A stretch of DNA of 64,000 nucleotides from NCBI GenBank assembly GCA_963734935.1, contig CAVTIO010000003.1, positions 342,103 to 406,102 on the forward strand, read 5' to 3'. The stretch comes from an uncultured Chloroflexia bacterium (GTDB taxonomy: Bacteria; Chloroflexota; Limnocylindria; Limnocylindrales; CSP1-4). Below are positions 43,882 through 45,546 of the stretch, one piece after another; position 1 is the stretch's first letter, and every line of letters begins with the position of its first letter. The notes below the pieces were generated by a model. That model was not told the DNA's origin. It did not search any database and saw only the letters and a program-made list of their open reading frames with translations. The translations under genes were made by a program, and so were the position numbers.

Positions 43882-43910
43882 TTGACGCATCGAACGCACT
43901 CCGCCATCCT
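43882..43910 (+). promoter_or_regulatory. Sigma70-type promoter of the metY leader
   Basis: TTGACG-N17-CATCCT. Confidence 0.6.
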
Positions 43911-43920
43911 TCGCGACCTG

Positions 43921-44007
43921 ATGTGTCACACCAGTCACAGTTGGTCGATGTGCATGCGTGGGCGGCCCCGTCGTTCGGAGGACGGGCGCCGAGCTTCCCT
44001 GCGCTGA
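43921..44007 (+). CDS. Putative leader peptide MCHTSHSWSMCMRGRPRRSEDGRRASLR
   Basis: ATG 10 nt after the -10 box with no SD; Met/Cys at codons 1, 2, 10, 11 and 12; lies upstream of metY and a terminator hairpin. Confidence 0.55.
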   Translation: MCHTSHSWSMCMRGRPRRSEDGRRASLR

Positions 44008-44051
44008 CCAACAGCACGTGACAGCGGGGATCTCGGAGCCGAGGTCCCGGG

Positions 44052-44085
44052 GCCGCGAACCACGAGGGTTCGCGGCTCTTCTGTT
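44052..44085 (+). terminator. Attenuator-like terminator in the metY leader
   Basis: GCCGCGAACC-acgag-GGTTCGCGGC followed by TCTTCTGTT. Confidence 0.7.
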
Positions 44086-44211
44086 CTCCGGGCAGGACGA
44101 CGGGTAGCCGCCGAGCCAGACCCCAGCGGGGGCCCTCGACGACCAGTCACCCGATTGCGACCACCAGGCACAGACGGATCGCCAGGTCGCAACTCCCAGG
44201 AGAACAGCGAC

Positions 44212-45546
44212 GTGAGCTTCGACCCCAGCGCCCTGCCGGCACTCCGCTCCGAGACCAAGGCCCTGCACGCGGGCCAGGTGCCCGATCCCACGACCCACGC
44301 ACGAGCCGTACCGATCTACGCCACCACGTCCTACGTGTTCGACGATGCCGCCCACGCGGCGCGTCTGTTCGGGCTCCAGGAGTTCGGGAACATCTACACC
44401 CGGATCATGAACCCCACCACCGGTGTGTTCGAGGAGCGCGTCGCGGCGCTCGAGGGTGGCGTGGGGGCGCTCGGCCTGTCATCGGGTCAGGCGGCGGAGA
44501 CGCTGACCATCCTCAACCTCGCACGTGCCGGCCAGAACATCGTCAGCAGCGCCAGTCTCTACGGCGGCACCTACAACCTGTTCCACTACACGCTGCCCAA
44601 GCTGGGCATCGACGTCCGGTTCGTGGACTGCTCCGACCTCGGGGCATGGGCGGACGCCATCGACGACGACACCCGGGCGCTGTACCTCGAGACGATCGGC
44701 AACCCGCGGCTCGACGTTGCCGACATCGAGGGCATCGCCAAGGTCGCGCACGCGGCGGGCATCCCGCTCATCGTCGACAACACCTGCGCTCCGCTCATCG
44801 CGAAGCCGATCGAGCTTGGGGCGGACATCGTGCTCCACTCGGCGACCAAGTGGATCGGCGGACACGGGACGGTGATCGGGGGCGTGGTCGTCGACTCGGG
44901 CAACTTCGACTGGGCTGCCTCGCCCCGCTTCCACGACGACCTCGTGGCCCCGGATCCCTCCTACCACGGCGTGTCCTACACGGACGCGTTCGGGCCCCTG
45001 GCGTTCATCATCAAGCTCCGGGTGCAGGGGCTTCGGGATCTGGGCCCGGCGCTCAGCCCGTTCAACGCGTTCCAGCTGCTCCAGGGCCTCGAGACGCTGC
45101 CGCTCCGGATCGAGCGCCACAGCCAGAACGCGCTGGCGGTCGCCCAGTGGCTGCAGGATCGTCCCGAGGTCGACTGGGTCAGCTACCCGGGTCTCGCCTC
45201 ACATCGCAGCCACGAGGTCGCCCGGCGAACGCTCACCGGCGGCTTCGGGGGCCTGGTCACGTTCGGAATCAAGGGCGGCAGCGACGCCGGGCGACGGCTG
45301 ATCGACAGCGTGAAGCTGTTCAGCCTTCTCGCCAATGTGGGCGACGCCAAGAGCCTGATCATCCACCCGGCCTCGACCACCCACCAGCAGCTTTCGACCG
45401 ATGAGCAGGTTGCGACGGGCGTGACACCGGACCTCATCCGGCTCTCGATCGGGATCGAGCACATCGACGACATCCTGGCCGACCTGGACCAGGCGCTGGC
45501 CGCCGCGACCGGACCGGCACCCGAGCGCGAGCTCGTGACGGCCTGA
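44212..45546 (+). CDS. metY: O-acetylhomoserine aminocarboxypropyltransferase (sulfhydrylase)
   Basis: [22 protein letters not shown] lysine [42 protein letters not shown] start. Confidence 0.95.

Follow-up and report, generated by a model that had tools for sequence, protein, structure and literature searches.

Methionine (Met) genes are textbook cases of control by S-adenosylmethionine (SAM) riboswitches, T-boxes or repressors. Classic leader-peptide attenuators (trpL, hisL, leuL, thrL, pheL and ilv of Proteobacteria; trp, leu and ilv of Actinobacteria) follow the scheme summarised in bioRxiv 10.1101/834739 and PMC1262725, in which a leader open reading frame (ORF) with codons for the end product is joined to an intrinsic terminator and a mutually exclusive antiterminator, access to which is set by the position of the ribosome. 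Here we describe a candidate leader of this kind for Met and cysteine (Cys), found upstream of metY and metX in a 64,000-nucleotide (nt) stretch of DNA from an uncultured Chloroflexia bacterium of the Limnocylindrales (GenBank assembly GCA_963734935.1, contig CAVTIO010000003.1, positions 342,103 to 406,102 of the forward strand), hereafter referred to as the window. The element, composed of a short upstream ORF (uORF) and a terminator that follows it, is probably a ribosome-mediated transcription attenuator of the trpL/hisL kind, with Met-Cys-Met as the sensing codons of its leader peptide. An earlier note on the window had proposed this core reading (a leader peptide with Met/Cys codons, a terminator, competing pairings and no known riboswitch), and it is now supported by conservation, covariation, a mutually exclusive antiterminator and modelling. 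The parts of the switch are as follows, in window positions.

43921-44007, + strand: uORF of 28 codons, product MCHTSHSWSMCMRGRPRRSEDGRRASLR, from ATG 43921 to TGA 44005-44007, lacking a Shine-Dalgarno (SD) sequence
43948-43956, + strand: candidate regulatory codons ATG-TGC-ATG (Met10-Cys11-Met12), present as ATG in 96, TGT/TGC in 93 and ATG in 93 of 99 unique uORFs
43961-43974, + strand: segment A, the switch strand, GGCGGCCCCGTCGT, able to pair with segment B, the 5′ arm of the terminator or box D (see below)
43981-43990, + strand: segment B, GACGGGCGCC, which forms a local hairpin with A inside the uORF (A:B), found in minimum-free-energy structures and with a putative anti-antiterminator role
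43989-44036, + strand: alternative pairing CCGAGCTTCCCTGCGCTG / CAGCGGGGATCTCGG (CCGAG...CGCTG / CAGCG...CTCGG), the inner part of a long antiterminator hairpin
44027-44048, + strand: hairpin P3 (GGGATCTCGG / CCGAGGTCCC), part of the terminator conformer
44048-44056, + strand: CGGGGCCGC, the last base of P3 and the outer part of the terminator 5′ arm (hereafter T5′)
44049-44089, + strand: intrinsic terminator with a GC-rich stem of 13 base pairs (bp) and a 5-nt loop (44049-44079), followed by the U-rich tail TCTGTTCTCC

Judged from its sequence, the element has the structural features that define classic attenuators, its antiterminator being supported by conservation and not by covariation. 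It shares with them the leader ORF with end-product codons and the terminator; an exclusive antiterminator is predicted here as well, with access that depends on ribosome position in our models. By contrast, Met and Cys would be sensed here, by three codons and not a run, in a uORF that is predicted to have little or no 5′ untranslated region. The sensing codons precede the antiterminator strand, which is itself part of the uORF, and conservation extends to the peptide tail. A box behind the terminator and an anti-SD sequence suggest added translational control, and the host is a Limnocylindria-type member of the Chloroflexota, not an actinobacterium. The element has no sequence similarity to any of the Rfam leader families.

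The mycobacterial polycysteine leaderless ORF Ms5788A is described in 10.1101/834739 as sensing Cys-tRNA by ribosome stalling, with SD sequestration as part of the mechanism. In the same account control is exercised in translation only, there is no intrinsic terminator, and the Cys codons that pair with the SD stand consecutively at the 3′ end of the ORF. Both that ORF and ours are short, lie upstream of sulfur-related operons and are leaderless (here predicted to be so), and residues other than Cys are partly conserved there too. Unlike Ms5788A, the present leader has a single Cys between two Met and a covarying terminator, and its downstream SD is predicted to pair with the terminator tail rather than with the sensing codons; judged by their descriptions, the two do not seem to be homologous. 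Leader peptides with Cys codons have also been predicted by comparative genomics before cys/cbs genes of Actinobacteria (PMC1262725). These resemble our candidate in having Cys codons before sulfur amino-acid genes, but in that survey's description they have Cys runs near the stop and no conserved terminator hairpin; for the methionine operons of Actinobacteria, the same survey's account gives no conserved RNA element upstream.

With SAM and S-adenosylhomocysteine (SAH) riboswitches and Met T-boxes the element shares the physiological task and a 5′ leader with a terminator before metY/metX-type genes; unlike them, it relies on an ORF and not on a ligand- or tRNA-binding fold, and has no Rfam match. 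The MTO1 peptide of plant CGS1, a nascent-peptide sensor, likewise regulates methionine synthesis. TnaC of E. coli is a nascent-peptide sensor as well, as described in PMC8429421. Our leader resembles both in having a conserved short peptide near its stop, upstream of the regulated operon, and differs from both in that RNA pairings overlapping the ORF account for much of its conservation as a peptide. In a literature search, to which Russian-language comparative-genomics surveys did not belong, neither a Met-codon leader nor a metY attenuator nor an RNA element of Limnocylindria was found described, in agreement with the earlier note, which knew of no such mode for methionine biosynthesis. The candidate family of leader-peptide attenuators with Met/Cys codons is new and its mechanistic kind familiar. 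If the reading is true, sulfur amino acids join the pathways under classic attenuation, and the mechanism extends to Chloroflexota.

The leader family and its Met and Cys codons

A DNA search of 61 related genomes recovered the leader (43850-44150) in 33 of the 36 other genomes of the same genus, at 78-89% identity, well above what chance would give, and in none of the 24 genomes of a small-genome sister family. All 30 genus loci retrieved run on into a conserved metY start in the alignment, and nucleotide conservation of the leader exceeds that of metY coding DNA. Several genomes harbour extra, more divergent copies, 15 of which were retrieved; the genes behind them are metY (3), a polar-amino-acid ATP-binding cassette (ABC) transporter comprising SBP_bac_3, permease and ATPase (4, one of these copies being degenerate), OsmC-like genes (5), beta-carbonic-anhydrase-family genes (2) and an unassigned ORF (1). 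A 26-nt degenerate core pattern, searched in one genome per species, occurs in at least 119 places. Nearly all of the 80 examined come from metagenome-assembled genomes of Chloroflexota / Candidatus Limnocylindria-Limnocylindrales, and in 78 the downstream ORF could be scored (62 Cys_Met_Meta_PP, 8 Pro_CA, 6 OsmC, 1 MetX-like hydrolase and 1 without family). Altogether 125 leaders were collected; without 15 duplicates and one degenerate copy, 109 distinct leaders are left, which precede metY (82), beta-carbonic-anhydrase-like (Pro_CA) genes (10), OsmC-like genes (9), the polar-amino-acid ABC transporter (3), metX (1), or an unknown gene or no ORF in the flank (4). By this distribution the element is a multi-operon family. 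The earlier note had described it as controlling metY-metX: these two genes do follow the leader in the window, but the element is not specific to metY.

A profile of 85 distinct leader peptides was then run in six frames against 401 genomes of the class (the family tallies include four unpublished genomes). It matched in 75 of 137 genomes of the host family (f1) and in 37 of 153 genomes of family f4; matches in f3 (8/92) and f2 (1/16) were weak (E above 0.004) and are not counted as members. Each of ten more distant profile matches (10/10), from a second genus of the host family and from a second family, has its own uORF and terminator, carries the 9-mers of the antiterminator pairing (see below) unchanged, and is followed by a metY homologue. 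In the host's own genome, which is 90% complete, nhmmer and a peptide pattern returned no second copy, the single one being that before metY.

The earlier note had given a 28-codon uORF without SD and with an ATG-TGC-ATG cluster, and its translation is exact at 43921-44007 with the cluster at 43948-43956. Both the uORF and its Met/Cys codons are kept among relatives. Apart from L036, every leader examined has a uORF, 22-36 codons long. In 105 of the 109 leaders a start codon (72 ATG, 33 GTG) lies 12-16 codons before an invariant CGG codon, and in 91 the distance is exactly 14 codons; the remaining four start at 10, 17 or 20 codons or, in L036, have no start. This position is kept even where the N-terminal codons of paralogs have fully diverged. 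Within the genus set, minor-allele frequencies at codon positions 1, 2 and 3 are 0.096, 0.077 and 0.176, and synonymous codons alternate (TGT/TGC, CGC/CGT/CGA, GAC/GAT). Two uORFs (L034 and L045) carry in-frame 3-nt deletions. Three others (L016, L017 and L025) have a 1-nt deletion in GGAGGAC, which changes the tail to ...RRSETGAE..., and a 1-nt insertion 20 nt further on, which restores the frame and the same TGA. We infer from these coding signals that the uORF is translated.

The family consensus of the peptide is MxHTxxSWxMCMRxRPRRAEDGV, with the core M-C-M-R-x-R-P-R-R-x-E-D-G. Nine residues (M10, C11, M12, P16, R17, R18, E20, D21 and G22) are each conserved in at least 90% of the 85 distinct peptides. 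The tail R-x-R-P-R-R-x-E-D-G is also conserved at 90% or above, and the second family has MCMPWRPRRLED, in which some codons differ (CGC for CGT). RNA-level constraint is visible within the ORF as well: NGG stands at codon -1 (W 42, G 40, R 17) and NCG, coding for A, S, T or V, at codon +4, and of the 99 unique uORFs 99 have CGG and 98 CCC, neither of which changes synonymously.

The candidate sensing codons vary with the class of the downstream gene. M-C-M occupies codons -5 to -3 in 79 of 82 metY leaders, and at least two Met are present in 81 of the 82. Three further metY leaders from another genus of the host family (g5; L171-L173) have M-M-S-M, with three Met and no Cys; their uORF has 36 codons (MNASTFSRRENSRQASSLRGSMMSMPGRPRSAEDGV), and RPRS replaces RPRR. 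In carbonic-anhydrase leaders, Cys is kept in 10 of 10 and both Met in only 5 of 10 (ICC twice, MCT twice and MCR once). Two consecutive Cys codons occur only in two carbonic-anhydrase leaders of one genome, and a single Cys in 93 of 99 unique uORFs. Such a shift with gene class goes in the direction that codon sensing, and not a peptide-only or RNA-only model, predicts, in small numbers of related sequences. We infer that the leader responds to Met/Cys, with a stall and a direction of response as set out below. If this is true, one small cassette sits over several operons with its sensing codons tuned, Met before metY and Cys before the carbonic-anhydrase-like gene.

Terminator, antiterminator and models of the nascent RNA

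Pair counts, referred to as cells, were obtained from an alignment of 107 distinct leaders. The terminator that the earlier note had placed before metY was recovered by a terminator scan (1 site against 0.2 expected in shuffles), and its tail ends about 125 nt before the GTG at 44212. Its stem is paired in 95.1% of cells, and 6 of the 13 pairs have changed on both sides. The inner pairs alternate (GC 74 / AU 29, GC 54 / AU 46 and CG 48 / UA 34), and the outer five change almost only from GC to GU. None of 500 shuffles reached the covariation score of this stem. P3 is paired in 91% of cells, with both sides changed in 4 of 10 pairs, and the A:B hairpin in 80.9%, being weaker in leaders of the short-uORF type. 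Folding of the whole leader region has a z score of -2.37 relative to shuffles.

The decisive antiterminator would be formed by segment A and the terminator 5′ arm. Within the uORF, GCGGCCCCG (43962-43970) is the exact complement of CGGGGCCGC (44048-44056), and this A:T5′ pairing is present in 98.7% of 958 cells, compared with 41-55% when the strands are slid against each other; the sole variants are GC to GU. The invariance of A and T5′, the absence of synonymous change at CGG-CCC and an outer terminator stem that varies only by wobble should be expected of a strand that is shared by two alternative helices. The earlier note had correctly seen that mutually exclusive structures compete at this leader, but missed the A:T5′ pairing. 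Its own alternative pairing (CCGAG...CGCTG / CAGCG...CTCGG) does exist: 66.9% of cells are paired, one pair covaries (UA 51, CG 49), and the pairing is the inner part of the long antiterminator hairpin. The pairings it had drawn between the 5′ part of the uORF and the region of its stop are present in the window and are rejected as a family feature, being paired in 49.6% of cells against 25-40% when slid.

No SAM, SAH, T-box or other family was found in 43700-44300 when the whole window was scanned with Rfam 15 at the gathering score, and a permissive scan of the same interval (E ≤ 10) gave four weak, unrelated matches only (Scr5676, mir-6827, CC0196 and HCV_5BSL1). The earlier note's statement that neither a SAM riboswitch nor a T-box is visible therefore stands.

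Switching was modelled on nascent RNA that reaches from the start codon through the terminator 5′ arm. Of the 107 leaders, 103 could be modelled (four had no usable anchor), 47 of the long and 56 of the short type. The readout is the mean probability of the A:T5′ pairs, P(A:T5′), given as medians for the long and the short type, and the ribosome footprint is an assumed one. In free RNA the medians are 0.14 and 0.37. With the A site of a ribosome on the first Met codon they rise to 0.99 in both types, and with the A site on the Cys codon to 0.75 and 0.70; a ribosome over strand A brings them to 0 in both. The predicted fold of the stalled state is a single long hairpin, in which A pairs with the terminator arm and B with the 3′ arm of P3, and which has the CCGAG...CGCTG / CAGCG...CTCGG pairing inside. 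According to the models, stalling of the ribosome at the first Met or at the Cys codon favours the antiterminator.

Proposed mechanism, a probable translational layer and rival explanations

The proposed mechanism begins at the promoter, which the earlier note had read as TTGACG-N17-CATCCT and whose two hexamers lie as follows.

43882-43887, + strand: -35 hexamer TTGACG, invariant in 30 genus loci, followed after 17 nt by CATCCT
43905-43910, + strand: -10-like hexamer CATCCT (pattern NANNNT), 17 nt past the -35 hexamer and 10 nt before the ATG

Of the 105 leaders whose start codon could be scored, 71 have TTGAC at -40 or -39 relative to it, and in 89 a hexamer of the pattern NANNNT ends 9-10 nt 5′ of it. 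A simple sigma-70 scan of the window does not call CATCCT as a -10 box. Because only 10 nt lie between the -10 box and the ATG, the uORF has no SD; and with the start codon fixed at 9-10 nt from that box, the mRNA is predicted to be leaderless or near-leaderless. Transcription should start on the ATG at 43921 or within a few nucleotides upstream of it, the promoter spacing predicting a 5′ untranslated region of 0-4 nt.

In the attenuator that we propose, transcription would begin at or just before the ATG at 43921 and the uORF would be translated without an SD. Strand A would then have two partners. When held by B (43981-43990), it would leave P3 and the terminator (44049-44089) free to form, and transcription would stop before metY; when paired through 43962-43970 with the terminator 5′ arm (44048-44056), it would build the long antiterminator hairpin that includes the CCGAG...CGCTG / CAGCG...CTCGG pairing. 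Under scarcity of Met-tRNA or Cys-tRNA, the ribosome would wait while its A site holds either the first Met codon or the Cys codon. The stalled ribosome would hide the 5′ half of the uORF and leave strand A free at its leading edge, so that the antiterminator forms and the polymerase reads through into metY-metX. With a good supply, the ribosome would cross A and B and depart, A:B would re-form and the terminator would work.

The conserved peptide tail RPRRxEDG and a post-terminator box point to extra layers, and the following features suggest where one of them may act.

44081-44091, + strand: terminator tail CTGTTCTCCGG, an anti-SD that complements the metY ribosome-binding region and, through CTCCG, the CGGAG of the uORF (43976-43980)
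44097-44112, + strand: box D, ACGACGGGTAGCCGCC, a post-terminator complement of segment A
44199-44207, + strand: metY ribosome-binding site GGAGAACAG, beginning with GGAG at 44199
44212-44214, + strand: metY start codon GTG

The tail sequence CTGTTCTCC (44081-44089) is a perfect complement of the metY ribosome-binding region GGAGAACAG (44199-44207). Among 40 distinct metY leaders of the long type, the longest perfect complement between tail and SD reaches 7 nt or more in 34 and 9 nt or more in 22, with a median of 9 against about 4.4 in shuffled sequences, and the matching changes extend beyond the SD core, for example TCGTTCTCC with GGAGAACGA. Of 14 short-type leaders tried, 13 could be scored; 4 have a complement of 8 nt or more, and 6 have one of 6 nt or more. 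The CGGAG of the uORF is paired with CTCCG of the tail (44086-44090) in 93.6% of cells. Box D and CTCCG together can form with A and CGGAG a long-range helix (A:D) of 19 bp, which is paired in 90.6% of cells. Five pairs of this helix differ on both sides among the leaders, and a C.A mismatch occurs in it in most leaders of the short type (62 of 107 leaders).

These complementarities, together with the models, make probable a second, translational layer, in which the tail (44081-44091) would sequester the metY ribosome-binding site unless it is held by the uORF region, box D and the CGGAG of the uORF being able to capture the tail instead. In modelled read-through mRNA the metY SD is paired: its median unpaired probability is 0.01 in free RNA and 0.00 when a ribosome is stalled. 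Partial opening (0.25) is seen in one modelled state only, that with a ribosome over the 3′ part of the uORF and the A:D helix formed. Opening of the SD at equilibrium by a Cys-stalled ribosome was not obtained in these foldings of the read-through mRNA (0.00); the translational layer, if real, is therefore kinetic as well. If both layers work as proposed, the leader is a compact natural part of about 290 nt for studying termination and ribosome-binding-site masking coupled to one sensor. A small hairpin (44120-44145; GACCCC...GGGG, then CCTCGACGA), conserved in the long-uORF type, lies between box D and the metY ribosome-binding site.

Several results weigh against transcription attenuation by Met/Cys sensing. 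At equilibrium, the complete leader of the window folds the terminator under every ribosome mask that was tried (-86.5 kcal/mol, compared with -74.8 kcal/mol when A:T5′ is forced). Since the full leader always folds the terminator, the switch must be kinetic and act during transcription; a purely thermodynamic switch is rejected, only the nascent-RNA models showing switching. Within those models, a ribosome with the second Met codon in its A site masks strand A and, with the assumed footprint, gives a P(A:T5′) of 0, which would be a response in the wrong direction. In 38-43% of leaders the antiterminator is favoured (P above 0.5) in free RNA already, and a ribosome at the stop codon favours it too (0.87 in the long and 0.86 in the short type). 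The A:T5′ antiterminator lacks covariation because both of its strands are essentially invariant. Only three sensing codons are present, compared with the runs of classic leaders. Constraints on the RNA rather than on the peptide show themselves in many of the fixed uORF bases (NGG at -1, NCG at +4), as the codon patterns indicate. Finally, the conserved tail RPRRxEDG and box D are superfluous to a simple attenuator model.

Sequence data from RNA libraries were examined as well. Small shares of the window are contained in 24 public runs, 20 of them recorded as RNA. Four metatranscriptome runs, each from a different study, contain contigs 90-95% alike that span about 43943-44124, and one metatranscriptome contig of 354 nt joins a relative's leader to its metY coding region. 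This shows that leaders of relatives occur in RNA libraries and can be contiguous with metY, with DNA carry-over as a possible source. The contigs extend past the terminator and cannot show starts, ends or strand; they are evidence neither for nor against termination.

The same observations can be read in other ways. One is a combined device, in which a single leaderless uORF of 22-28 codons runs two switches and R-P-R-R-x-E-D-G acts as a brake or as a metabolite-responsive arrest peptide that parks the ribosome on A. After read-through, strand A and the GGAG of the uORF would capture box D and the tail and free the metY ribosome-binding site, and the device would govern a sulfur-acquisition regulon of metY-metX, the beta-carbonic-anhydrase-like protein (a possible hydrolase of the carbonyl sulfide (COS)/carbon disulfide (CS2) type), the OsmC-like protein and the amino-acid importer across the class of uncultured Chloroflexota. 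We hold this fuller scheme to be unlikely. We think it rather more unlikely that the nascent peptide itself works the same RNA switch, its tail R-x-R-P-R-R-x-E-D-G slowing or arresting the ribosome near the stop, so that the position over A or B sets termination and access to the ribosome-binding site; the tail might be a constitutive brake on A and B, or respond to Met, SAM, Cys or sulfide. That the core is kept in 85 distinct peptides (nine residues at 90% or above), that the tail persists in the second family with other codons (MCMPWRPRRLED) and that uORF insertions and deletions stay in frame all speak for a working peptide. So do the models, in which a ribosome at the end of the uORF gives a P(A:T5′) of 0.86-0.87 and is the only state that opens the metY SD (0.25 against 0.00-0.01), and in which a ribosome over A gives P = 0, so that a brake there would enforce termination. 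However, most of the conserved tail bases are explained by pairing (NGG at -1, NCG at +4, CGG/CCC never synonymous); the frameshifted leaders L016, L017 and L025 turn the tail into SETGAE... but keep the RNA sequence, and L033 reads RPRGAEDV. The class-specific swap of Met and Cys codons also fits codon sensing better.

Were the ORF incidental, the leader could be a riboswitch-like RNA that binds a ligand or a protein, with a multi-stem junction closed by A:D. Its extreme nucleotide conservation, above that of metY coding DNA, would suit such an RNA, as would the 19-bp A:D helix, which encloses four hairpins and is paired in 90.6% of cells, and the copies before several functionally linked operons, as riboswitches have. 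We nevertheless consider this very unlikely: there is no Rfam match even at E ≤ 10, the start codon keeps a fixed distance from promoter and core in 105 of 109 leaders despite divergent N-terminal codons, the frame is kept by 3-nt indels and a compensated frameshift, a true terminator with a U tract would lie inside the supposed aptamer, and A:D has its C.A mismatch in most short-type leaders (62/107). Least credible to us, and highly improbable, is an independent small gene whose product, a protein of 22-28 residues or a small RNA released by termination, acts in trans, with the place before metY secondary. In its favour, the peptide is conserved in sequence, termination would release a discrete RNA of about 165 nt, and short RNA-library contigs lie mainly over the leader. 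Leader peptides and attenuator RNAs of Sinorhizobium trpL are described as acting in trans (PMC7298713; 10.1101/606483), which we count in favour of this possibility. Set against it are the sulfur-amino-acid-related genes that directly follow the leader in the same orientation in 105 of 109 cases, the single copy in the host's own genome, before metY, and a tail that both complements the ribosome-binding site of the gene behind it and covaries with that site, which is a cis relationship.

Surroundings of the leader and downstream genes

The leader region (43882-44211) is housed in a 432-nt gap between a 200-codon ORF and metY. Its flanking elements and the genes that follow it are listed below.

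43849-43866, + strand: upstream box GTTACGTTTCGGTTGCGG (consensus GGTTGCGTTTCGG), conserved in alignments, about 10-15 nt 5′ of the -35 hexamer
44212-45546, + strand: metY, O-acetylhomoserine/O-acetylserine sulfhydrylase (PF01053, E 1.1e-139; TIGR01326, 664.5 bits, cutoff 495.1)
45556-46728, + strand: metX-like homoserine O-acetyltransferase (Abhydrolase_1; best NCBIfam matches are MetX models, at 276 bits and under their cutoffs)

The upstream box is present in most loci of both uORF types, and a second GTTGCG often follows it. It could be a transcription-factor site or an UP-like element, adding control at the DNA level. A genome scan for the box gave four loose matches of no clear meaning.

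Two gene classes behind other copies of the leader are of functional interest. Beta-carbonic-anhydrase-family enzymes include COS/CS2 hydrolases, and the beta-carbonic-anhydrase-like genes behind the leader, by their placement, may supply sulfide rather than hydrate CO2. Their leaders are L046, L067, L070, L072, L092, L106, L120, L122, L035 and L036. The last two belong to two nearly identical carbonic-anhydrase loci of one genome (L035 in G018:C6, at a contig end, and L036 in G018:C11). A 1-nt deletion destroys the frame of the uORF start in L036, and the pair may be an assembly duplicate or include a decaying copy. The OsmC-like genes lie behind leaders L039, L040, L042, L043, L037, L093, L097, L103 and L125; that of L093 has as its best NCBIfam match 'OsmC-related (seleno)protein' (82.7 bits, below the cutoff of 95). 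A link of this family to sulfur or selenium metabolism is suggested, from co-regulation alone. For both the beta-carbonic-anhydrase-like and the OsmC-like proteins, which are unstudied, the regulon would give a functional hint (sulfur supply) in an abundant uncultured lineage of soil and freshwater.

The 200-codon ORF upstream of the leader (43177-43779) has no Pfam or NCBIfam match and ends in a Gly/Pro-rich tail. Behind it lies a GC-rich, terminator-like hairpin (43805-43830) with a weak likeness to the model of the Streptomyces small RNA Scr5676 (24 bits, gathering score 56). The sole riboswitch called in the window is a thiamine pyrophosphate (TPP) riboswitch on the minus strand at 37271-37378 (63.1 bits, gathering score 54.3).

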